From sequence record PZ445439.1: a stretch of 64,000 nt of DNA. One strand, written 5' to 3'. Under the pieces are notes generated by a model. The model ran no database searches, was not told where the DNA came from, and saw nothing but the letters and a program-made list of their open reading frames with translations. The stretch comes from a phage. The position numbers and the translations under genes are program-made. This document shows, piece by piece, positions 1,788-18,553 of this stretch; position 1 is the first letter of the stretch, and each line of letters begins with the position of its first letter.

Positions 1788-1817
1788 CGTTTTTCCTTTT
1801 TGTTAACAGATGAGTTA

Positions 1818-1845
1818 ATAATAACAAATAATTCTTAAAGCATTT
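1818..1845 (-). promoter_or_regulatory. MotA-dependent middle promoter candidate (AAATGCTTTA box, 12 nt, TATTAT)
   Basis: MotA-box-like TGCTTTA about 12 nt upstream of a -10 hexamer, about 30 nt before gene 31 ATG. Confidence 0.35.
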
Positions 1846-2152
1846 ATTTACCAATAAATTGGAGCAAATGCTCAACTTTCATACCATTAACTGAAATCAA
1901 TTTGTCAATAGAAAAACCTCGCCATGCACCGAGTTCAACATCAAATACTGGAATCATATCAGTAGATTCTTTCCGAGTAGATTCAGTCAATTTACCGGTT
2001 TGCATGGTTGGCATAAAGTCAGCATCACGAGTACCTTTCATAGTACGAATAGTACCATCAGACTTTTCAAAAACTACGTTTGAAATACCCATGGACAATT
2101 TAGTTTTCAAAATTTCGCGAATTGCTACTTTCTGGTCAGTCGTCAGTTTCAT
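1844..2152 (-). CDS. hypothetical protein, 102 aa (31.1 position)
   Basis: track ORF, ATG start, tightly packed with neighbours. Confidence 0.55.
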   Translation of the reverse strand: MKLTTDQKVAIREILKTKLSMGISNVVFEKSDGTIRTMKGTRDADFMPTMQTGKLTESTRKESTDMIPVFDVELGAWRGFSIDKLISVNGMKVEHLLQFIGK

Positions 2153-2389
2153 TTATTTACCTATTACAGTTTTAATATGAGTTGTTCCACGTTCTTTAAG
2201 AGTGGAAAGTAATTTTTGGCATTTTTCTAAATCAGATTTCCAACTGTGTGGTCTATCAATACAAACCCAGCTTGTCTTATAATACTGCTTCCATTTAGAG
2301 AAAAAATATTTCTTATACTCTACAGCAAATGCAATGTTCTCATTAGAATAAGAACTGATTGCTGTGAGCTGTACCAAACGAAATTTCAT
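2153..2389 (-). CDS. hypothetical protein, 78 aa (31.2 position)
   Basis: track ORF, ATG start. Confidence 0.5.
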   Translation of the reverse strand: MKFRLVQLTAISSYSNENIAFAVEYKKYFFSKWKQYYKTSWVCIDRPHSWKSDLEKCQKLLSTLKERGTTHIKTVIGK

Positions 2390-2970
2390 TATTCACCACA
2401 GAATTCGTTGATATTTTCCCAGTTTAACTTATTCAAGTTTTTCTTAGGAACATTAAACACTTCAATACCTGCATTTCGCAGAATATCATCCCAGCCGGGT
2501 TTATTTTTATCGTATGTTTCACAATAAACCAGCTTTTTAATACCGGATTGAGCTATCGCTTTTGCGCAATCTGGACAAGGAGAAAGTGTTACATACATAG
2601 TAGCACCTTCAATTGAAGAACCATTTCGTGCAGCAAACAAAATTGCATTTAGTTCAGCATGAATTTCATTTTTAGACGACCATTCAGAGTGAGCACTGCG
2701 ATGTTCTTTCGCCAAGACAAAGCGATCAGTTGAACCAAACGATACACATTCAGGCTTATGACCTTGAATGATAGTATGTTTAGGCTTATTCAGCAACCAA
2801 CCTTGCTCAGCAGCATAATCGCAGCAATTCACACCGCCTGCAGGCGAACCGTTATATCCAGTAGAAATAATACGTCCATTCTTTTCAATTACTGCTCCTA
2901 CCTTCCAAGAGCAACATTTTGATTCTTGTGATACTAAATATGCAATTTGAAGTACTGTACTCGCTTTCAT
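2389..2970 (-). CDS. cd: dCMP deaminase
   Basis: 193 aa with HAELNAI and PCxxC zinc-deaminase motifs; ATGA overlap with upstream ORF. Confidence 0.9.
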   Translation of the reverse strand: MKASTVLQIAYLVSQESKCCSWKVGAVIEKNGRIISTGYNGSPAGGVNCCDYAAEQGWLLNKPKHTIIQGHKPECVSFGSTDRFVLAKEHRSAHSEWSSKNEIHAELNAILFAARNGSSIEGATMYVTLSPCPDCAKAIAQSGIKKLVYCETYDKNKPGWDDILRNAGIEVFNVPKKNLNKLNWENINEFCGE

Positions 2971-3305
2971 TTCATAATCACCAGATAAGCAGATTTAGCA
3001 GTTTCAACACGATAAATTTCGTGACGAAGTTTAGTTATACTTTTAATAACAGAACTAATTATATTCTGCCCATCTTTAAAGCGGTTTTTCTTATCAATAA
3101 AAATTGCACCAGCCATCTTTTTGTGAAGCTCAACTGGATACTTCGTCACAATAATAGCATCATACACAGAAGGATGAATACTATTCACTAGAGTATCATT
3201 CATTAAAGTTATTCTAATGAACTGTGCTGTTTCAGAATCAAGCGCTCTATGATCGCCAGTATCATTTTCAAGACAATTATCAATTATATCAGTTAAATTC
3301 ATCAT
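2967..3305 (-). CDS. hypothetical protein, 112 aa (cd.1 region)
   Basis: track ORF, ATG start. Confidence 0.5.
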   Translation of the reverse strand: MMNLTDIIDNCLENDTGDHRALDSETAQFIRITLMNDTLVNSIHPSVYDAIIVTKYPVELHKKMAGAIFIDKKNRFKDGQNIISSVIKSITKLRHEIYRVETAKSAYLVIMK

Positions 3306-3538
3306 AGTACGCCATACACCCTTTGTGCTTCAACTAATCCATCAAAATCCAGTTTAAGATGTGTTATTTGGTCACCATCGCCTGGATTCACAATTACTAA
3401 TACTGAACGAGGAGTTTCGGTAATAACACGAACCGATGTTTCAGGAAATCGTTCAGAAACCTTATTTACCAATTCCTGAGCAAATAGTTTAACTTTTTCT
3501 TGGAATTCTTTAGTAGTAATTGGTTTTTCACTTAGCAT
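3302..3538 (-). CDS. hypothetical protein, 78 aa
   Basis: track ORF, ATG start, 4 nt overlap with neighbour. Confidence 0.5.
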   Translation of the reverse strand: MLSEKPITTKEFQEKVKLFAQELVNKVSERFPETSVRVITETPRSVLVIVNPGDGDQITHLKLDFDGLVEAQRVYGVL

Positions 3539-3789
3539 GTTGATCCCAGCTCCTTACTTTCAACGTTTTTAACTAATTTGACAGAAACTAATTCGGCATC
3601 TTGGGTAATCATTACCGGGCCTTCTTCATATTTTTCAAGATATTCTAGAGCTTTCTTTTTAGCTTCTTCCTTCGTATCAGTTTGAGCATAGATATAAAAC
3701 ATGCAACCAGTAATACCTACTACTTTCCACTTAATTTCTTTATCAGTTTTAAAGCGATAAACCTTATCTTCTTCAAACCATTCGCTCAT
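3532..3789 (-). CDS. hypothetical protein, 85 aa
   Basis: track ORF, ATG start. Confidence 0.5.
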   Translation of the reverse strand: MSEWFEEDKVYRFKTDKEIKWKVVGITGCMFYIYAQTDTKEEAKKKALEYLEKYEEGPVMITQDAELVSVKLVKNVESKELGSTC

Positions 3790-3819
3790 TTCAATTTCCT
3801 CATTTGTTTTGGTAGAGCT

Positions 3820-3851: not shown

Positions 3852-4127
3852 TTAAATCGCTTTGAATTCTGACGTCTGTGATTCAAAGCGAATGTCGCCT
3901 TTGATAACTAACTCAGCATCAAGACCAAATACAACAATGATATGCGCGGAACCTGGATACAGCGTAATGGCAACAGAATCCACCTGGTCTGGAAGCAAAG
4001 TGTTTAATACATGAGTCACTTGAGCATGGATTCGAAGTTCGGCTGCGTTATCAAGCTTTTCAAACATATTATTAGCGATAATTTGACTAAACACTACTTC
4101 TACGATTTTAGAATAAGTCGGAAACAT
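3852..4127 (-). CDS. hypothetical protein, 91 aa
   Basis: track ORF, ATG start. Confidence 0.5.
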   Translation of the reverse strand: MFPTYSKIVEVVFSQIIANNMFEKLDNAAELRIHAQVTHVLNTLLPDQVDSVAITLYPGSAHIIVVFGLDAELVIKGDIRFESQTSEFKAI

Positions 4128-4129
4128 AT

Positions 4130-4322
4130 TTACCTCACATAATTTTCTTCAAGCCAATCAATAACATCCAAAGCGTTATCAAAAGTTGAACCATCTACTT
4201 TGTCTTCTGTTTCATAATCAAGAACATCTAAGCCTACTCTTCCGTCAACAATAGGCCATAAACAAAATAGATATTTCTTTTCTTTTTCAATTTTATCACA
4301 AAGACGATAAATCTTTTCTATG

Positions 4323-4330
<8 letters not shown>
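4130..4330 (-). CDS. hypothetical protein, 66 aa
   Basis: track ORF, ATG start. Confidence 0.45.
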
Positions 4331-5723
<1,393 letters not shown>

Positions 5724-5727
<4 letters not shown>

Positions 5728-5954
5728 TTATTTTTCTCAACCAATGATTGAATATAATCATGCAGGTCTTTAGATGCTTTACCCCACTTATTTTGGTATT
5801 CATTTTTAAGATTAGCACGTGATTGAGCTAATAAAACATCATTAGTTGGAGGTAAAGATTCTAATCGTTGAATCTGACGTCCATAAATCATTGCTGCCAT
5901 CTCTGATTCATAAATCAATCCTTTGAGATGTTCAAATTGATGCCATGAAATCAT
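5724..5954 (-). CDS. hypothetical protein, 76 aa
   Basis: track ORF, ATG start. Confidence 0.45.
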
Positions 5955-6250
5955 TTACATTTATCCTCTTTTAACTCTTGACGATAATAACATATCATAG
6001 TTTTCTGGTCATGTACATATCGTTTTACATCATTAAGCCAAATACGAAATTCCTGAGAATCTTCAAATGGCATACCGACCCAAGCTTTACCATCGATAAC
6101 TTTAACTTGCCAAGATAGTTTAGCTTCGTCATATGACTTTATTTGCACAGGCCAATTAGGATGAACTGTTTCTTTCTTTACTTCTAGAGGCTTTGTCGAA
6201 CAACCAACTAGAAGACCAATAGATAATATTACTGCTGATAGTTTAATCAT
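5951..6250 (-). CDS. pseT.2: o-spanin-like outer-membrane lipoprotein (Rz1 equivalent)
   Basis: signal peptide with LVGC lipobox; immediately downstream of i-spanin-like gene. Confidence 0.6.
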   Translation of the reverse strand: MIKLSAVILSIGLLVGCSTKPLEVKKETVHPNWPVQIKSYDEAKLSWQVKVIDGKAWVGMPFEDSQEFRIWLNDVKRYVHDQKTMICYYRQELKEDKCK

Positions 6251-8773: not shown

Positions 8774-9276
8774 TTAAAAATATTTTTTAAAACTCATCAT
8801 AACTTTATCATCAACATCATTATCAATCTGTGCAACAAGATAAGATGACAGTTCTACTTCTTGTGGCGCGGATTGAACATTATCAGAATTAAGATATTCA
8901 CGAATCCAAGGATATGGGTGTTTAACCGGAGCATCGGTAATTGGGCATGGAAGACCACACTGTTTCATACGAGATACAGTTAAGTAATCAATAAAGCTCC
9001 ACATGTTATTTGTATTTAATCCAGGAACATCGCCATCTTTAAATAAATGAACTGCCCAATCTTTTTCTTGGCGGTTAACTTCCATGAAAATATCAACTGC
9101 TTCTTGTTCACACTCTTGAGCAATTTTAACCCATTCATCGCCATCAGTGCCAAGTTGAAGTTGACGAATAATATATTGAGTGCCTTTAAGGTGAAGCTGT
9201 TCATCACGTGCAATGAACTTCATAATCTTGGCATTGCCTTCCATGATTTCCATATTCTTGTGGAAGTTAAAGGTAC
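8774..9276 (-). CDS. nrdB: ribonucleotide reductase small subunit, exon 2 (join with 10368..11043)
   Basis: encodes ..TFNFHKNMEIMEGNAKI.. R2 region; exon boundary inferred from codon arithmetic and terminal G of intron. Confidence 0.85.
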
Positions 9277-9412
9277 CGTTATGTTCGATTGAGCTCGCTA
9301 ATTCTCAACCCGTTCTCTTATGAACTGCTACATATTACTATGCAGACCAGACTATATCACAATCCCAGAGGGATTCTCCCCATTTCGAGTCGCTTGACCC
9401 TACGTCCGAAGA

Positions 9413-10222
9413 CTAGTCGTTGAACCTTGCTTTGCAATTGTCGCCGTGCCATCGTTTATATGTTGATGGTGATAAATCTTTCTTATCACAATATGGACAA
9501 TTCAATTGAATTCTATTTGGATTTAATTTACATCTGTCATTATGTTTTAGATAAAATCCAGGACCTTTACCAATGTGACCACAAAAATCACATGTGATTT
9601 CTTTTTGTGCAGGATGGGTCCCGTTCTTAACCATTTCTAATGTTTTTGCTGATGTTCTTTTCTTATGGTCTTCTGATAAGAAATGATGTGAACCGTCATT
9701 TACCCGTTTTGATTGAGTTTCTGACTGCATTTTACCACCGCAAAATACATGAGTACCTTCTTTTATAGCTGCAATATTGCGTTCTTTAACTTTTGCAATA
9801 TGCTCAGCTTGTTGAAAATTATGTATACCTAATGCAACTCTATTTAAATTAGATTTACGCTGTATTTCACCGTCTAAAAGATGAAATGTACCATTTTCTA
9901 TCTTAGATTTAATAGAGGCAATATTTTTAGCTCGTACTTCAGGGATATTAAAAATCTGGATTTCTCTAGATTTTGCGGCTTTAGAAGCTAATTCAGAAAT
10001 TTCTTCAGGAGAATATTTCATTCTAAGCTTTATAGCATGACAAGCCTGGTAATCTTTTTGAGCTAAATGTATATCATAATGTTCCTGTATAGAAAGGCAC
10101 ATCAAATTATCTAAATCATTATTTTCACGGTTACCGTCTTTATGATGGATTTCGTATGTTCTTCCATCAGAATCTTTAGGTATAGGTCCGTTAGCATCTA
10201 TCCAAATTTTTCTATAGTTCAA
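9413..10222 (-). CDS. HNH homing endonuclease, I-TevIII-like, full length 269 aa
   Basis: N-terminal HNH motif (EIHHKDGNRENNDLDNL), C-terminal Cys clusters; located inside the nrdB intron. Confidence 0.8.
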   Translation of the reverse strand: MNYRKIWIDANGPIPKDSDGRTYEIHHKDGNRENNDLDNLMCLSIQEHYDIHLAQKDYQACHAIKLRMKYSPEEISELASKAAKSREIQIFNIPEVRAKNIASIKSKIENGTFHLLDGEIQRKSNLNRVALGIHNFQQAEHIAKVKERNIAAIKEGTHVFCGGKMQSETQSKRVNDGSHHFLSEDHKKRTSAKTLEMVKNGTHPAQKEITCDFCGHIGKGPGFYLKHNDRCKLNPNRIQLNCPYCDKKDLSPSTYKRWHGDNCKARFND

Positions 10223-10249
10223 TTGTGCATCCTCTTAAAAGTATAATCA

Positions 10250-10257
10250 TATTTATA
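10250..10257 (-). promoter_or_regulatory. late promoter TATAAATA inside intron, upstream of endonuclease ORF
   Basis: exact TATAAATA about 28 nt upstream of the ORF start with AAGAGG Shine-Dalgarno between. Confidence 0.35.
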
Positions 10258-10367
10258 TTATACTAATTAAAGGTGCAAGCAAAACCTTGGCTGCTAGTTT
10301 TCCTATAAAGGACTTTCCAGCAATTAAAGGAGTTTTCGATAAACGTTACCGTTTAAAGGCGCATTTT

Positions 10368-11043
10368 ACGCAAAAGATACATAAAAACGAATTGCTTCTA
10401 AGGCATTAATAACGTGCAAACAGAGGTAAAGAGATTTCATTAGCTCACGCTTCCAATATGTCTCATGCTCAATAGCATCTTCAATAACGTCTTCGTCTGC
10501 ATTAATTTCTTTTTGGTATTCGATATCAGCTTTAGCGTTTTCCCAATAACGAGCTTTAACCAGAACATCATCATAATATCGTCCGATAGATTCGGCACGC
10601 TTCATAATAGCTTCATCTAATACAATCTCATCAAACACCTTCGATGGATCGGTATAAAGATTTCGCATAATATGAGTGTACGAACGAGAGTGAATAGTTT
10701 CACTGAATGTCCATGTTGCAACCCACGTATCTAATGAAGGGTCGGAAATCAGTGCCATAAGTACCGCAGATGGGGCCCTGCCTTGGATAGAATCTAATAA
10801 TGATTGATACTTAAGATTGTTTGTAAAGATGTCCTGTTGGAACTGAGGAAGCTTATTGAACTGCGCAGAGTCCAACATCAAGTTTACCTCTTCTGGGCGC
10901 CAGAAAAATGACAATTGCTTTTCAATAAGTTCTTCAAAAACTTTATGTCGCTGAATATCATAACGTGCGAGGCCAAGACCAGAACCAAAGAACATTGGTT
11001 CATTCAAAACATCGACTTGTTGTGTGTTAAAAACTGTACTCAT
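10368..11043 (-). CDS. nrdB: ribonucleotide reductase small subunit, exon 1
   Basis: R2 motifs up to ..NALEAIRFYVSFA then intron. Confidence 0.85.
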
Positions 11044-11098: not shown

Positions 11099-13354
11099 TT
11101 AAAGCTTACAAGCAGAACAATCTTCAGCTTTAGGTGTTTCTAATTCATAGTCATCTGTACCTGACCCATCACGAGTGTTATGATAGTAGAGGTTTTTTCC
11201 GCCAAAGTACCAGAAGTAAAGCAGATCGTCAAGCATTACTGACATTGGCACTTTACCTTTCTCAAATACTGCAGGGTCATAGTAAGTATTAGCAGAAGCA
11301 GATTGGCACACCCATTTCAACATGATAGCAACTTGGGTTAAATAAGGTTTATTACCTTTCTTAGCAAGTTTCCACGCGTAGTCGTAAAGACCTATGTTAT
11401 GTTCTATATTAGGAACAACCTGACGGAAGTTGCCTTCTTTAGATTCTTTAATACTCACTGGACCCCGCGGCGGTTCAATCCCGTTTGTAGAGTTTGATAC
11501 TTGACTGCTTGACTCACAAGGCATGAGTGCAGACAACGTTGAGTTACGAATTCCATGTTCTTTGAGTTCAGCTCGAAGTTCTTCCCAATCACATACGTAG
11601 TTCGGGGCTGCGATTTGGTCAATCTTTTTATTGTACCAGTCGATAGGTAATTCGCCTCTAGACCATTTAGTGTCTGAATAATACTCGCAACATCCTTTTT
11701 CTTTGGCGAGTTTGATTGATGCTTTGATAAGGCCATATTGCAATCTCTCAAACAATTCATGAGTCAAATCGTTAGCGTCTTCATATGAAGCGAAGTTAGA
11801 AGCTAACCATGCAGCATAGTTCGTAACACCAACACCAAGATTACGACGCTTTTTGGCTTTTAAAGCTTCTGGAACCGGATAATCTTGATAGTCTAACAGG
11901 TTATCAAGTGCACGTACTTGTACTTCAGCAAGTTCATTAATTTTATCTTGGTCTTGCCAATCAAATTTATCTAACACGAATGCAGATAACGTGCATAAAC
12001 CAATTTCAGCATCAGGACCATTCACATCATTAGTTGGAATAGCGATTTCACAACATAAGTTACTCTGACGAATTGGAGCTTTTTCACGAATAAACGGAGT
12101 GTAGTTATTCGTGTTATCAACGAATTGCGGATAAATTCGAGCGGTGCCAGAACGTTCAGTCATGAACAATTCAAAGAGTTCTAGTGCTTTGATTCTTTTC
12201 TTTCTGATTGTTGGGTCTTTTTCAGCTTTCTCATAAAGCTCACGGAATTTATCTTGATCTTCAAAGAACGAGTAGTATAGTTCGCCTGACATTTCGTGAG
12301 GGCTAAATAAAGTAATATAATCATTTTTACCAAGGCGTTCCATCATAAGGTCATTAATCTGAATTCCGTAGTCCATATGTCGAATACGGTTTTCATCCAC
12401 GCCTTTGTTATTTTTCAGAACTAATAGGTTCTCTACTTCTAAGTGCCACATCGGATAATACGCTGTAGCAGCACCACCACGAATACCACCTTGAGAACAA
12501 GATTTTACTGCAGTTTGGAAATGTTTCCAGAATGGAATAACACCCGTATGTCGAACTTCACCCATACCGATCTTAGAACCTTCTGCACGAAGCATACCAA
12601 CGTTGATACCAATACCAGCTCGTTTAGAAATATATTCAATAATTGATGCTGAAGTTTTGTTAATAGATTTTAACGAATCACCGGCTTCAATAACTACACA
12701 ACTAGAGAACTGGCGAGTTGGAGTACGAGCACCTGCCATAATTGGAGTAGGCAATGAAACTTGATGAGTAGAAACGGCATCATAAAAACGAATAATATGT
12801 TTCAAACGGTCGTGAGTTTCGTCTTGATGTAAGGCCATGCCAATAGCCATGATAGCAAACTGGGGAGTTTCATAAATCTTCCCAGTTGTTTTATCTTTAA
12901 CTAGATATTTTTCTTTAAGCTGCATAGCACCAGCATAAGTCAGGTCAAAGTCTCGTTCATGTTTAATCTGTGAATCGAGATAAATGATTTCTTCTGCTGA
13001 ATATTGAGACAACAGCTCAGGGTCATATTTGCCTTCATTAACACAATAAGAAATATGGTCGATAAAAGCAGGCGGTTCAAACTGCCCATATACATCTTTA
13101 CGAAGTGCAAACATTAGCCCTTTGGCGGCGACATACTGATAATCAGGTTCTTCGACAGAAATCGAGTTAGCTGCAACTTTAATACAAATCTTCTGGATAT
13201 CTTTGGTGCTCATCCCGTCGACAAGATGGGTCTTAATTTCTTCGTACAATTCATATGGGTCAATTTGTGTTCCTTCACATTGCCAAGTTAAGACTTGAAT
13301 AATTTTCTGTGCATCAAAATTTTGGGATACACCACTGCTCTTAGTTACTTGCAT
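11099..13354 (-). CDS. nrdA: ribonucleotide reductase large subunit
   Basis: 751 aa with class I RNR active-site region (..NLCCEI..) and C-terminal CxxC. Confidence 0.95.
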   Translation of the reverse strand: MQVTKSSGVSQNFDAQKIIQVLTWQCEGTQIDPYELYEEIKTHLVDGMSTKDIQKICIKVAANSISVEEPDYQYVAAKGLMFALRKDVYGQFEPPAFIDHISYCVNEGKYDPELLSQYSAEEIIYLDSQIKHERDFDLTYAGAMQLKEKYLVKDKTTGKIYETPQFAIMAIGMALHQDETHDRLKHIIRFYDAVSTHQVSLPTPIMAGARTPTRQFSSCVVIEAGDSLKSINKTSASIIEYISKRAGIGINVGMLRAEGSKIGMGEVRHTGVIPFWKHFQTAVKSCSQGGIRGGAATAYYPMWHLEVENLLVLKNNKGVDENRIRHMDYGIQINDLMMERLGKNDYITLFSPHEMSGELYYSFFEDQDKFRELYEKAEKDPTIRKKRIKALELFELFMTERSGTARIYPQFVDNTNNYTPFIREKAPIRQSNLCCEIAIPTNDVNGPDAEIGLCTLSAFVLDKFDWQDQDKINELAEVQVRALDNLLDYQDYPVPEALKAKKRRNLGVGVTNYAAWLASNFASYEDANDLTHELFERLQYGLIKASIKLAKEKGCCEYYSDTKWSRGELPIDWYNKKIDQIAAPNYVCDWEELRAELKEHGIRNSTLSALMPCESSSQVSNSTNGIEPPRGPVSIKESKEGNFRQVVPNIEHNIGLYDYAWKLAKKGNKPYLTQVAIMLKWVCQSASANTYYDPAVFEKGKVPMSVMLDDLLYFWYFGGKNLYYHNTRDGSGTDDYELETPKAEDCSACKL

Positions 13355-13441
13355 ATATTCCTCAGTATAGGTTGATAGACATTACTCCAAACGGGATAGT
13401 ATTTATCCCGTTAATTTATTATACACTTTTAAACTGAAGCG

Positions 13442-13696
13442 TTAATTATCCTCGGCAATAATTTCTTCGTATTCTTTAGGTGTCAAGACTGTGATATTGA
13501 AATAAACCAACGGTTCTTTTTCTATACCGAATCCACCACAAAATTCACGATATTCATAAATTCGTTCATGTGAATAACAAATGAATCGTTCACCTTTAAC
13601 TGTGATTTCACTATTTGGTGAAGGGATATCCAGTTCACTTGGATTTTTCATTTCAAAAATTGTGGTGCCATATGAATTAATAAAACGTAAAATCAT
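13442..13696 (-). CDS. hypothetical protein, 84 aa
   Basis: track ORF, ATG start, between td and nrdA. Confidence 0.5.
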   Translation of the reverse strand: MILRFINSYGTTIFEMKNPSELDIPSPNSEITVKGERFICYSHERIYEYREFCGGFGIEKEPLVYFNITVLTPKEYEEIIAEDN

Positions 13697-13697
13697 T

Positions 13698-14558
13698 TTA
13701 TACCGCCATTTTAGCTTTGATAGCTGGATGAGATTCGTAATTTTTAAGAACGAAATCAGAATGTGTCATCGTTCCAGTAACCCAGTCCATTTGGATTTTT
13801 GTAGGCCAATTCTCAAAATTACTAGGCCAATTAATTTCAAGAGAACATAACTCTTTAGGTTCACGACGAAGAACTTCTTTGCATTGTTCTACATGATTGC
13901 TGTAGATATGCGTGTTGCCGCCTGAGAACACTAAATCACCTGGGATAAGGTTACACATCTTCGCTACAATATGCGTCAAGGCAGCGTACGAGGCAATGTT
14001 GAATGGCAGGCCCAAGAAAACATCTACACTGCGTTGATACCATTGTAAATCAAGATGCCCATTACGCACATTAAATTGATAGAACATATGACAAGGAGGA
14101 AGAGCCATTTGGTCAATTTCTGCAGGGTTCCATGCAGAAACTATTTGACGACGATCATTAGGAAGAGCTTTAATACGGTCGATAGTTTTGACCAATTGGT
14201 CTACACCACCAAAATCACGCCATTGCTTACCATAAATAGGACCAAGTTCGCCGCTATGATATCCAAGGTCTTTTGCCTGATTTTCATAGTTGTCGTCCCA
14301 AATAGTTTTACCTTGAATAAGACTACCATGAGTACGAATACGCAAATCATTAACATTGGTAGAACCAGACATGAACCACAGTAACTCGGCAATACAAGCT
14401 TTCCATGCTAATTTCTTAGTTGTTACTGCAGGGAATCCTTTAGTCAGATCCCAACGTAATTTAGTTCCGAACAGGGCAATAGTGCCGGTGCCTGTACGGT
14501 CGTCTGTTTCGTAGCCATTTTCTAGGATATCATTAATCAGGTATTGGTATTGTTTCAT
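13698..14558 (-). CDS. td: thymidylate synthase, uninterrupted (no intron)
   Basis: 286 aa continuous ORF with TS motifs (PPCH.., DLGPIYG). Confidence 0.95.
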   Translation of the reverse strand: MKQYQYLINDILENGYETDDRTGTGTIALFGTKLRWDLTKGFPAVTTKKLAWKACIAELLWFMSGSTNVNDLRIRTHGSLIQGKTIWDDNYENQAKDLGYHSGELGPIYGKQWRDFGGVDQLVKTIDRIKALPNDRRQIVSAWNPAEIDQMALPPCHMFYQFNVRNGHLDLQWYQRSVDVFLGLPFNIASYAALTHIVAKMCNLIPGDLVFSGGNTHIYSNHVEQCKEVLRREPKELCSLEINWPSNFENWPTKIQMDWVTGTMTHSDFVLKNYESHPAIKAKMAV

Positions 14559-15142
14559 TTATAAACGCTCTCAGTAATTTCGGTGAGTTCATCGATTCTG
14601 TAGTAATGAGATTCTACCATAGAACGTTGAAGCATAATATCTTGGACGAAATCTTTATCAAGTTGAACATCGGAATTAACACGACATTTCTTAATGATTT
14701 TAGTCATCACGATTTCATCGGCATAAGGCAGTGCTTGTTTAAGTAGAGCAGGACCGCCGATAACAGATACATTAACATGTTCAGTAGAAAGTTTAAACGG
14801 TACATCAGTTGCAGGGCTAAACAGGTTAATTTCACCACCTGTTACCAAGGTAATAAATTCAGATTGGGTGATATAGAACCGTGCAAGTTCATCAGTTTTA
14901 GTCCTAGGCAGTTTTCTGGCCATATCAGTGACAACCACATGAGTACGATCTGGGAGTAGACGAGGTAATGATGCAAAAGTCTTAGCACCCATAACCATTA
15001 CAGTGTTTTTAGTGCGAGCAACAAAGTTACTCATATCTTGTTTGATATGCTTCCATGGAAGTCCATCACCTAATCCAAAAGCATATTCCAGTTTATCATC
15101 AACTGTTTTAGATGGTGCGCATGCGAATACTAATTTAAGCAT
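14555..15142 (-). CDS. frd: dihydrofolate reductase
   Basis: 195 aa, DHFR-like; 4 nt overlap with td. Confidence 0.9.
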   Translation of the reverse strand: MLKLVFACAPSKTVDDKLEYAFGLGDGLPWKHIKQDMSNFVARTKNTVMVMGAKTFASLPRLLPDRTHVVVTDMARKLPRTKTDELARFYITQSEFITLVTGGEINLFSPATDVPFKLSTEHVNVSVIGGPALLKQALPYADEIVMTKIIKKCRVNSDVQLDKDFVQDIMLQRSMVESHYYRIDELTEITESVYK

Positions 15143-15383
15143 TTTTAAGTCCTTTAATAACTTTTTGGATTTGTGATTTAGACGAAACTAGTTCTGTCTG
15201 AATTTCCAAACCATCGGTTTGGTCAAATGTTGTAACACAAACGCGAGGTTTTGTTGTGTATCGCCCAGACAAATCAAATGCGTCGCCAATGAATTCGGCC
15301 AAATCCGAATGGTCTAAATTAACTGAAGTATAAACTTCATATCCGACATCAGCGCCTTGAGAGTATTCAACAACAACATTCAT
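15135..15383 (-). CDS. hypothetical protein, 82 aa (frd.1 position)
   Basis: track ORF, ATG start. Confidence 0.5.
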   Translation of the reverse strand: MNVVVEYSQGADVGYEVYTSVNLDHSDLAEFIGDAFDLSGRYTTKPRVCVTTFDQTDGLEIQTELVSSKSQIQKVIKGLKNA

Positions 15384-15385
15384 AA

Positions 15386-15634
15386 TTATTTCCTCAGATT
15401 TTTCTTAACAACTTTCCAATCAACTTTAAACGATTCAACATCAGAGTGGTGAATCCAGAATCCTGCACTTTCACCATCTTCGTAGAGTGGACATCCATCA
15501 CATTCTTCGTTCCAACCCATTTCACGTAAAGCTTCTTCAGCTTGTTCAAGGAGTTCAGCGTCTTTACCGACGATGTTGAAGTACCATTTACCTCTAACTT
15601 CAGAATCTTTGATGCTCTGACGTTGCAATCTCAT
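15386..15634 (-). CDS. hypothetical protein, about 82 aa (frd.2 position; internal Met start)
   Basis: AAGGAGAATAAA-ATG site at internal Met; upstream track extension crosses a hairpin. Confidence 0.5.
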   Translation of the reverse strand: MRLQRQSIKDSEVRGKWYFNIVGKDAELLEQAEEALREMGWNEECDGCPLYEDGESAGFWIHHSDVESFKVDWKVVKKNLRK

Positions 15635-15696
15635 TTTATTCTCCTTCACTTTTGATTTGATAGGGCTACTATAACATAACCCTATCTGATTGTACA

Positions 15697-16089
15697 CTAC
15701 TTTTTAAAAGTTTTTTGCAAAAGTTCGATGATTTCGTCGACGTTGGTTTCATCTACGATACAATGGATTTTTGTTACACCTAAAGCTATACCTTCGTTAG
15801 TAGGTTGAGGCTTTACTATATCTACCTCAGTAAAGTATTTGAACTCGTCAGGATAAATCTCAAAATAAGTTTCAATTTCACCACCGGCAGAACATACAGT
15901 ACCATCTTCCATAGTTACACTTACTACGTTTGACGTATCGCTATCATAATCAGGTTCCATTCCGTTTACAACAAAACTAGGCCCGTGGAGTTCAATCAAT
16001 TTTAACATCTTAGCGTTATTGTGTGGTGCTTCTTGAACAAAGTCATCTTTAAATAAAGGGTTAATGATATAAGATTTTCCGATTTCCAT
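15697..16089 (-). CDS. hypothetical protein, 130 aa (frd.3 position)
   Basis: track ORF, ATG start. Confidence 0.55.
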   Translation of the reverse strand: MEIGKSYIINPLFKDDFVQEAPHNNAKMLKLIELHGPSFVVNGMEPDYDSDTSNVVSVTMEDGTVCSAGGEIETYFEIYPDEFKYFTEVDIVKPQPTNEGIALGVTKIHCIVDETNVDEIIELLQKTFKK

Positions 16090-16118
16090 TTTGATTTCCT
16101 CATGTTGTTGATAGGTCT

Positions 16119-16147
16119 ATACTAACACATCCAGGGAAGAAGTAAAC
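16119..16147 (-). promoter_or_regulatory. early-type promoter candidate (GTTTAC, 17 nt, TAGTAT)
   Basis: located just downstream of gene 32 terminator, upstream of frd.3-like ORF. Confidence 0.35.
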
Positions 16148-16172
16148 AACTTTTTCGGCAATTTACAGATAC

Positions 16173-16196
16173 TCAAAAGGGAGACCGAAGTCTCCC
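16173..16196 (-). terminator. intrinsic terminator after gene 32 (GGGAGAC-UUCG-GUCUCCC then U tract)
   Basis: stem-loop with UUCG tetraloop followed by UUUUG, 7 nt after gene 32 stop. Confidence 0.55.
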
Positions 16197-16202
16197 AATT
16201 TA

Positions 16203-17105
16203 TTATAAACCAGCTAACAGGTCATCGAGGTCGCCATCATCAGAGGATGAGGTAGAGCTCATGAAGTCATCTTCAGTTTTTGCAGAACTAAAGGCTTCCA
16301 TGTCTTTATCAAAATCGTCAAGGTCAGAAGCAACTTTATCTGCAACAGAAGCTGCTGCGGCTGCTGCACCACCAAGAGCGGCAGTACCAAGAACCTTAGC
16401 GAAAGATTCATTTAATTTTTCAAAGGATTTGAACTGGTCTTTAGCCGTCAAAGTAGTAAGGTCTACCATCTGGTCATATAGTTCTTTCTGGAATGCTTCA
16501 TCATTAATACGAGGAATTTCAGATTGACCCAAGAATTTAGATTCGTCATAGTTGCTAAAACCGGAAACCTGCTTAGCTTTCAGAACGAAGTTGGCACCTT
16601 CAAACGGACAAGTAACATCAACTGGAGTTTCACCCATTTCGGTATCAACAGCAATCATTGCATTGATTTTGTCCCAAATCTTTTTACCGAAACGATATTT
16701 AAATACTTTACCTTCGTTATCTGGAGCTTGAGGGTCTTTAACAACCAGAATATTAGCCCAATAAGAAGTTTTACGTTTCAGTTGAGAATATTCATTTTTG
16801 TTGGTATTGTACAGGTCATTTTTACTAATGTACTGACATACAGGACAAGAGTCATAATCACCATGTGTAGAAGAGCAATTTTCAATATACCATTTACCAT
16901 TTTTCTTGAAACCATGGTTAACAAGAATTGCAAATGGTAGTGCATCATCAGTTTTTGCTGGCAAGAAACGAATTACCGCTTGACCATTACCGGATGCATC
17001 TAGCTTCAGCTTCCATTCGCCTTTATCTTCTGAAGAGAAACCTTTGTTACCATTCAGTTTAGCCATTTGAGCAGCGAGGTCAGCAGTAGATTTACGTTTA
17101 AACAT
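16203..17105 (-). CDS. 32: gp32 single-stranded DNA-binding protein
   Basis: 300 aa, matches recalled T4 gp32 including acidic C-terminus. Confidence 0.95.
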
Positions 17106-17223: not shown

Positions 17224-17877
17224 TTAATACTTACATGATTTGATTGTTTCTATGAACAATTTCTTAGCAACATTTCCATCGATTTGAAGTATTTTTCGAT
17301 ATGCCTTTAATTTGGTAGAATAATTTTGCCAGACTAAGTTATCGGTGAGTTCGTCGTGCTTATCTATAATATTCAAAAACGAGTCCAACAATAAGAAAGT
17401 CTCAAATGAAATTATATTGCTTTGTAACAATTTAAATATGTAGCTCGACTGAACTTTATTATTATAATCAAATATCTCTTGAAGCGCACTAACTTCCACT
17501 TTCTTACTGAAATAGTAGATGTTACGTACGTCTTCAGCAAACGTCTCTTTAGCTTGTTTGAGACGTCCAATATATTCCCTATAGAAAACTAATGCATCAG
17601 CGTCTGATATCTCACCAATCCATGCGTCTTGGTTAGCAACTAAGTTGCTTATGAATATCAAGGTGAGTTCCTTCAATTTATATTTCTCTGCTAGTTTTTC
17701 AAAGAAATATTTATCTCGGCGTTTTTGATACGCATTATCCGAAACACGCATGCGCCAGTTATATTTGATTACGTCATACCGACCACCAAAGTGGTTTTTG
17801 CACATCAAGTATAGTTTATATACTGATTTACCGTTAATATAACGTTCTCCGTCAGGAGGCATGCGTATTTTAATCAT
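17224..17877 (-). CDS. 59: gp59 helicase loader
   Basis: 217 aa, matches recalled T4 gp59. Confidence 0.9.
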   Translation of the reverse strand: MIKIRMPPDGERYINGKSVYKLYLMCKNHFGGRYDVIKYNWRMRVSDNAYQKRRDKYFFEKLAEKYKLKELTLIFISNLVANQDAWIGEISDADALVFYREYIGRLKQAKETFAEDVRNIYYFSKKVEVSALQEIFDYNNKVQSSYIFKLLQSNIISFETFLLLDSFLNIIDKHDELTDNLVWQNYSTKLKAYRKILQIDGNVAKKLFIETIKSCKY

Positions 17878-18553
17878 AGTTCCATCCAGGCCATTTTGAA
17901 GATTTAAGTCTATACGTAACTAGAGATGCAGAAATATTAAAAACATCCGAAACTTCTGTGCATGATGAGTATTTTATACCATCAATAATTATAGGTTTTT
18001 GTTTTTTAATAGTTCTTTCTTTAGAATGCGGCTTTGAATTTGCTATTCTAAGAGCTTCTTTGGTTGAATCAGGCATCGGCTTATTCGTTTTTCGCCCTTT
18101 TCGGACTTTACTCAAAGCTAATTTATGAGCTTCAGATAGTTTCTTACCCTTATTAGGGGATGGTATTTTTCTTTCTAATCTGGTTTTAGATACTTTAGCC
18201 TTAGTCTCTTCAGATCTAGGTTTCCCTATTTTAGAAAGTGAAATAGCCCTTTTAGCTTCATCACTTTGTTTTTTACCAGGGCCACCTTTACCACCTGGAA
18301 CCAGGTTATAAGTATCAGTTCGCAAAACAAAATCTTCATTAACCAATTCTGCTTCTTTTTTATAGGCGTCCTTGTCATTATCATATTCATAAAGAACTTC
18401 AGTATAAAAATTTTTTAGCCCGTATTTAGCTTTGGCCGCTAATATAGCGCGACCAGACCCAATATACCAATCTTTCTCTTTATGTTTTTTGTGTACGCCT
18501 ATATAAATTTTACCATTTATTTTATTGGTAGTTTTATACACAACGTATTTCAT
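17870..18553 (-). CDS. free-standing GIY-YIG homing endonuclease-like protein (Seg-like), 227 aa
   Basis: N-terminal GIY-YIG-type motif (VVYKTT..GKIYIGV); Lys-rich NUMOD-like repeats; overlaps gene 59 by 8 nt and gene 33 by 4 nt. Confidence 0.8.
   Translation of the reverse strand: MKYVVYKTTNKINGKIYIGVHKKHKEKDWYIGSGRAILAAKAKYGLKNFYTEVLYEYDNDKDAYKKEAELVNEDFVLRTDTYNLVPGGKGGPGKKQSDEAKRAISLSKIGKPRSEETKAKVSKTRLERKIPSPNKGKKLSEAHKLALSKVRKGRKTNKPMPDSTKEALRIANSKPHSKERTIKKQKPIIIDGIKYSSCTEVSDVFNISASLVTYRLKSSKWPGWNYD

Follow-up and report, generated by a model that had tools for sequence, protein, structure and literature searches.

An intron-free td gene with a homologue of the I-TevI homing site in a Mosigvirus phage

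The thymidylate synthase gene (td) in the window, the 64,000-nucleotide stretch of phage DNA analysed here (PZ445439.1), is uninterrupted and carries, in the segment that encodes part of the active site, an unoccupied homologue of the site at which the I-TevI-encoding intron lies in the td gene of phage T4. Across Tequatrovirus, Mosigvirus, Gelderlandvirus, and Karamvirus, a mobile intron is polymorphic for presence and absence, and this gene is most probably (about 0.8) the empty-site allele, an assignment that follows from the existence of occupied states within the same genus. The observation confirms already-known biology, namely the polymorphism for the td intron among T4-like phages; its variable occurrence in these phages and the targeting by I-TevI of a conserved sequence encoding the thymidylate synthase active site are textbook cases. 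The finding matters little in itself and its practical value is modest. The phage would be suited as a partner for homing and co-conversion crosses within Mosigvirus, because it combines a natural empty site with exons that are 95-98% identical to those of intron carriers. A review from 2010 described td-type introns as confined to the T-even cluster (PMC2993671), and the database survey reported here, according to which the td intron appears to have crossed from T4-like phages into Mosigvirus, updates that view.

The td gene and its surroundings

The td gene belongs to a minus-strand cluster of T4-type nucleotide-metabolism genes (11099..17105), which contains the following features.

11099..13354, minus strand: nrdA
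13442..13696, minus strand: nrdA.2/DUF5496 ORF, 84 aa
13698..14558, minus strand: td (thymidylate synthase), a single uninterrupted ORF of 286 aa in the ORF list
14555..15142, minus strand: frd, the stop codon of which overlaps the td start codon
16203..17105, minus strand: gene 32

The frd stop and td start codons share the sequence ATGA (14555..14558), as is expected for translationally coupled T4-type genes.

That td lacks an intron and forms one ORF of 286 aa had been proposed in a preliminary description of this DNA, and it is borne out by the ORF list, by a profile comparison and by a nucleotide search. Residues 2-286 match positions 1-266 of the 266 positions of the Pfam profile PF00303 (Thymidylat_synt; E 2.5e-97), and this end-to-end match places the product in the thymidylate synthase family (ThyA/Td). 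The translation holds the conserved active-site segments LPPCHMFYQF and WYQRSVDVFLGLPFN, with the cysteine of ..PPCH.. and the arginine of ..YQRS.., both of which are long-established active-site residues of the family. The role of these segments is also described in the literature (PMC5009752). A direct blastn search with the T4 td intron found no td-intron sequence in the 64-kb window, and the gene measures 861 nt, against 1877-1878 nt in intron-carrying alleles. Both a group I intron and an I-TevI ORF are absent from td, and the sole I-TevI-like match in the window is a free-standing ORF (17870..18553) that is 25% identical to I-TevI. An Rfam scan of the whole window at the gathering threshold returned no match; this is weak evidence, since the same scan also missed the group I intron in nrdB that protein and DNA comparisons reveal, and we rely on the blastn search instead. 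In all likelihood td is an ordinary and functional intron-free thymidylate synthase allele.

The source phage is a Mosigvirus, i.e., an RB69-like relative of T4. Its td is 99.9% identical at the nucleotide level to that of Mosigvirus MM02, and over a 13-kb stretch none of the phage records exceeds ~95% identity at near-full coverage, which indicates a mosaic member of the genus and not a resequenced strain. The gene is present in one unbroken piece in 282 of the 366 phage records with a megablast match to it, which implies that the td intron has not swept through related phages.

Other elements related to homing endonucleases are present in the window, one inside a split nrdB gene and one free-standing.

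8774..11043, minus strand: nrdB, split, with exon ORFs that match the N- and C-terminal halves of the profile for the small subunit of ribonucleotide reductase
10366..11043, minus strand: nrdB exon-1 ORF, matching the N-terminal half of the profile
~9277..10369, minus strand: nrdB group I intron of ~1.09 kb, bracketed by the alignment with the intronless nrdB of RB69
9413..10222, minus strand: I-TevIII-like HNH ORF of 269 aa in the nrdB intron, 95.5% identical to the I-TevIII remnant of T4
8774..9253, minus strand: nrdB exon-2 ORF, matching the C-terminal half of the profile
17870..18553, minus strand: free-standing GIY-YIG homing-endonuclease-like ORF of 227 aa between genes 59 and 33

The intronless nrdB of RB69 aligns to 11043..10370 and 9276..8774. 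The HNH ORF is full-length and includes the part of I-TevIII that is deleted in T4. Identity to T4 reaches 96.9% from the 3' part of the intron through exon 2 (9673..8774), but identity to RB69 in exon 2 (9276..8774) is just 79.2%, a pattern which suggests that the nrdB intron came from a T4-like donor with co-conversion. The free-standing ORF encodes an I-TevI-type C-terminal DNA-binding domain (Pfam PF20987, E 5.7e-11) and a NUMOD3 motif; in RB69 no gene is annotated in the interval between genes 59 and 33.

The homing-site homologue and its predicted cleavage

The RefSeq record of T4 gives td as a two-piece gene with I-TevI encoded inside, and splicing tests placed the junction between ...CTTGGGT and CTACCG..., with an exon 1 of 549 nt, an intron of 1017 nt and an exon 2 of 312 nt. 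Spliced T4 td and the window td align without gaps over their first 731 nt (77.4% identity), which locates the following features, numbered from the intron insertion site.

13998..14036, minus strand: I-TevI homing-site homologue, -27..+12, with eight synonymous differences from T4 in an ungapped alignment
14032..14036, minus strand: CAACG cleavage motif (5'-CNNNG-3'), -27..-23, from the alignment with T4 td
14000..14019, minus strand: counterpart of the 20-bp primary binding region of I-TevI, -10..+10, 16/20 identical to T4
between 14010 and 14009, minus strand: empty intron insertion site, from the T4 exon-junction alignment, between GGC (Gly) and CTG (Leu), with the peptide ..VDVFLG/LPFN.. 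across it

The sequence and its place in the gene are read directly from the window. The string CAACGCAGTGTAGATGTTTTCTTGGGCCTGCC, which the preliminary description had quoted as close to the T4 homing site, is found on the minus strand at 14036..14005, and the resemblance holds, with 31 of 39 bases identical over -27..+12 in the ungapped alignment and CAACG intact. The alignment with intronless T4 td which had been proposed as a check finds C1 and G5 of the motif, the positions that the literature calls critical, both conserved at the native distance. From T4 to the window, the differences are the exchange of one serine codon for another (TCA to AGT at -21, -20, and -19) and five single-base changes (-1 T to C, +3 A to G, +6 G to A, +9 T to C, and +12 T to C). 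All eight are synonymous, so that the encoded peptide LDLQWYQRSVDVFLGLPFNIASYA is the same in both phages. Five of the eight lie in or adjoin the 20-bp primary binding region, four of them (-1, +3, +6, and +9) inside it.

The site is about as similar to T4 as the rest of the gene. Its identity of 79.5% compares with a mean of 77.6% for 39-nt windows of td, 53% of which are at least as conserved, and 7 of its 13 codons are identical, compared with 56% of the same-amino-acid codons gene-wide. This agreement with the gene average points to coding constraint and not to special conservation of the site. Judged by this comparison, the resemblance is the homology of a constrained coding segment and does not stem from chance. 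Selection acting here in addition to coding constraint was considered and rejected, as the DNA of the site is neither unusually conserved nor unusually diverged. In the phage collection, 20 records are at least 99% identical over the 75 bp around the site, and 115 further records are 95-99% identical. Very likely, I-TevI recognises the DNA that encodes the active-site peptide QWYQRSVDVFLGLPFN, and this segment is retained here because the protein sequence is constrained.

The I-TevI monomer recognises a 38-bp target and cuts it on the upstream side of the insertion site, at distances of 23 and 25 nt; its DNA-binding domain wraps around a 20-bp region that has this site at its centre, and the enzyme is said to tolerate nucleotide changes in general (PMC2988022). 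The motif that it cuts is 5'-CA^AC^G-3'. Both in vitro and in vivo, C1 and G5 of this motif are critical, and survival in a two-plasmid survival selection was 100% with the native CAACG, the centre of which is AAC (PMC5009752). In the window, the native CAACG with both critical bases is found at 14036..14032, and the ungapped T4 alignment puts it at exactly -27..-23, in agreement with the distance rule (PMC2988022). C1 is the first base of a glutamine codon and G5 the second base of an arginine codon, so by the genetic code neither could change without loss of the Gln-Arg dipeptide. By homology with T4, nicks are predicted between 14033 and 14032 on the coding (top) strand, i.e., the minus strand of the window, and between 14035 and 14034 on the bottom strand. 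The insertion site is unoccupied, as seen from the continuous ORF and from the blastn search with the T4 intron. Upon co-infection with an intron-carrying relative, I-TevI would be expected to bind around 14000..14019 and to cut CAACG (14032..14036), which lies upstream of the insertion site at the 23- and 25-nt cleavage distances; repair of the break from the donor would then copy in the ~1-kb intron and a short donor exon tract. Cleavage of this site, and the efficiency with which it would proceed, are thus predictions from its likeness to the T4 site.

Occupied alleles, donors and alternative explanations

The T4 td intron sequence is present in 260 phage records, and its carriers include Tequatrovirus (sutha), Gelderlandvirus (STP4-a), and Karamvirus (EcL8g). 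A chimeric query, in which frd and td exon 1 of the window were joined to the T4 intron, was covered from its first to its last base in 21 phage records, i.e., in records that have window-like frd and td exon 1 joined to the intron; all 12 of the 21 that were checked are Mosigvirus with the td intron at exactly the window's site. Sorting the chimeric alleles by coverage alone failed, since T4-type exons aligned further than expected, and coverage from query position 1, in Mosigvirus-type frd, served as the working discriminator. The intron-carrying Mosigvirus td genes hold a group I intron of 1016 nt that encodes a GIY-YIG endonuclease of 245 aa, and these introns form two lineages, 99.7% and 90% identical to the T4 intron. 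Sandegren and Sjoberg reportedly described the distribution and homing of introns among T-even-like phages in 2004. A 42-nt exact match to nt 43-84 of the T4 td intron is also found in KAW3E185 (MK373782.1, 48735..48776) and in two other Mosigvirus-like records, unannotated and far from td; the match possibly represents the conserved core of a different group I intron, and blastn with the T4 intron found no equivalent of it in the window.

The first lineage is represented by G2285 (MK327933), in which td lies at 4301..6177 of the stretch examined and the 1016-nt intron occupies the homologous junction. The intron is 99.7% identical to that of T4, and its I-TevI is identical at 245 of 245 aa. 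Away from the intron, long stretches of the exons match the window at 98-100% identity, whereas all informative sites from -49 to +36 are T4-like, and the sequence is window-like from -67 outward and from +48 onward. This T4-like tract spans both the cleavage and the insertion site. Double-strand-break repair with co-conversion of flanking exon sequence is the mechanism of intron homing (PMC2988022), and the tract has the form of the footprint expected from it, so that G2285 appears to record intron homing across genera. The donor tract is T4-like yet not that of T4 (CGA at -22, CTT at +1..+3, and GCA at +18). It overwrote the recipient site, the pre-homing sequence of which we infer. A second, patchy cluster of T4-like bases is present at -159..-133 of G2285.

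The second lineage is found in a20 (OQ067374), with a 1016-nt intron that is 90% identical to that of T4 and 99.6% identical to that of Tequatrovirus sutha. The exons of a20 are 97-98% identical to the window, and over -45..+30 they differ from it at -4, -1, +3, and +6 only. A conversion tract could not be delimited in a20, because the exon of a sutha-type donor is already window-like at most positions. The I-TevI of the a20/sutha type is 88.6% identical to that of T4, and this intron lineage is nearly unchanged (99.6%) between this Mosigvirus and a Tequatrovirus. A further homing endonuclease gene, annotated between nrdA.2 and nrdA, is present in both a20 and sutha and missing from the window, where the interval 13355..13441 is just 87 nt long. 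The loci concerned in these comparisons are 1801..3677 and 4008..4643 in a20 and 3086..3817 in sutha. The Shigella phage ESh30 (Tequatrovirus, ON528740) has a td intron of only 320 nt (2046..2365), without an endonuclease ORF and with just the 3' end of the I-TevI ORF left; between -45 and -2, exon 1 of ESh30 shows no difference from the window. Occupancy of one and the same junction is thus directly observed, by the 1016-nt intron in G2285, with its co-conversion footprint, and in a20, and by the 320-nt ORF-less intron in ESh30.

The preliminary description had concluded that the phage would be a recipient for td-intron homing in co-infection with T4. The recipient part of this proposal is plausible, with precedent in nature: the site is retained with CAACG intact, and at least 12 Mosigvirus genomes carry the intron there, among them G2285 with its conversion tract. 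The part of T4 as donor is doubtful. RB69 reportedly excludes T4 completely and yields no viable recombinants with it (PMC2993671), which makes intron-carrying Mosigviruses likelier donors than T4; these, with exons 95-98% identical to those of the window, are the realistic ones.

In its strict form, this doubt amounts to a different explanation, according to which the site may be cleavable but T4 is ineffective as a donor: in a T4 co-infection, phage-phage exclusion and the low homology of the exons would prevent homing, which could still proceed from Mosigvirus donors. We hold this to be a real possibility, if somewhat below even. The total exclusion of T4 is a property of RB69, to whose td the window td is 97.7% identical, with 75-bp site regions that differ at two positions, but it was shown for RB69 and not for the present mosaic strain. 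The low exon identity of ~77% to T4 and the departures of the G2285 tract from T4 sequence at -22, +1..+3, and +18 also speak for this explanation. Against it stand the G2285 intron itself, 99.7% identical to that of T4 and accompanied by a T4-like exon tract, and exon 2 of the window nrdB with its 96.9% identity to T4 (in an alignment that also spans the 3' part of the intron), from which it follows that T4-like donor DNA entered this lineage at least twice.

It is unlikely that the site is a cleavage- or binding-resistant variant in which synonymous changes lower I-TevI activity and keep the allele intron-free despite circulating carriers. The window departs from T4 at eight of 39 positions, including four within the 20-bp primary binding region, and most Mosigvirus-like records are uninterrupted; yet CAACG keeps its critical C and G at the native distance, and most of the differences adjoin the intron elsewhere. 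AGT at -21..-19 is likewise present beside the intron of sutha, STP4-a, and EcL8g, and CCA at +4..+6 and TTC AAC at +7..+12 occur in the exon flanks of these carriers, so that AGT, +6 A, +9 C, and +12 C are each found beside an intron in other lineages. The AGT serine codon is, by these alleles, compatible with the presence of the intron. It falls in the I-TevI spacer, where the wild-type enzyme accepts substitutions according to one study (PMC4065259). The same study reports that naturally occurring td sequences of phages, with 53-87% identity to T4 in motif and spacer, were cut about as well as T4 in a Tev-mTALEN assay, the RB32 variant with its reduced activity being the exception that favours resistance (PMC4065259).

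The remaining two bases, -1 C and +3 G, set the window apart from all examined alleles with an intron and were seen in none of the intron-flanking exons, and consequently no occupied allele demonstrates tolerance at them. The T and A in occupied alleles are, however, expected, because the exon bases arrive with the intron by co-conversion and are constrained by splice-site pairing. The tolerance of I-TevI at each position of its target was reportedly treated by Bryk et al. in 1993. An operator for I-TevI inside the intron is identical to the homing site at 15 of 20 positions and is bound with equal affinity (PMC2988022), and in the operator-like sequence at nt 84-106 of the T4 intron, the equivalents of -1 and +3 are C and G, as in the window. 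The published identity of 15/20 was not reproduced, the best ungapped match (intron nt 84-106) reaching 13/20, so that the operator argument is qualitative only; the candidate 20-bp binding region of the window is 16/20 identical to T4, next to the reported 15/20 for the operator and the homing site of T4. In synonymous changes, the site has diverged neither more nor less than the gene on average, which gives no sign of directional escape. That AGT, C at -1 and G at +3 together form a naturally selected haplotype with partial resistance to I-TevI is very improbable. If true, such a haplotype would explain why most Mosigviruses stay intron-free beside co-circulating carriers, and it would mean an arms race over synonymous sites between a phage gene and a homing endonuclease.

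Precise loss of the td intron from an ancestor, e.g., by recombination with an intronless allele, has little probability; all stages of the intron life cycle are found among relatives (an unoccupied site, an intron that carries its endonuclease gene, and the ORF-less intron of ESh30) and such recombination would leave no trace, but the insertion site of the window is not surrounded by a T4-like or donor-like tract and is within 2 of 75 positions of that of RB69, 20 database records are at least 99% identical to the site over 75 bp, blastn with the T4 intron detected no intron remnants in the window, and a secondarily emptied allele would by sequence alone look the same as one that was never invaded.

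Comparison with known systems

The empty-site allele described here is best compared with T4 td and its I-TevI intron. The two share the gene, the position of the site in the segment coding for the active site, the peptide across it, CAACG at -27..-23 and 31 of 39 bases. They differ in that T4 has the intron, while the window has eight synonymous differences at the site, 77% identity over the whole gene, and a place in another genus, Mosigvirus. The last base of exon 1 is C in the window, whereas T precedes the intron in every occupied allele examined.

The closest well-known intronless relative is RB69 (NC_004928), the td of which is 97.7% identical to that of the window in nucleotides and 99.7% in amino acids, with the same gene order (nrdA, nrdA.2, td, and frd). 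The 75-bp site regions of the two phages (-45..+30) are the same except at +6 and +15, the latter outside -27..+12. RB69 is described as free of homing endonuclease genes (PMC2993671), unlike the window phage with its nrdB intron, full-length I-TevIII and free-standing GIY-YIG endonuclease gene.

I-BmoI, which targets thyA of Bacillus mojavensis, is a related GIY-YIG intron endonuclease that, according to the literature, recognises a homologous stretch of a thymidylate synthase gene and requires the G of the conserved arginine codon (PMC5009752). Its motif is GCCCG, in which only G5 is critical, and its host gene is bacterial, while I-TevI uses CAACG and depends on both C1 and G5 (PMC5009752). 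The intron-carrying Mosigvirus td genes (G2285, MK327933; a20, OQ067374; AV110; and others) have exons 95-98% identical to those of the window, the same flanking genes and an exactly homologous insertion point, and they differ from the window td in their 1016-nt intron and in the donor-type bases beside the junction.
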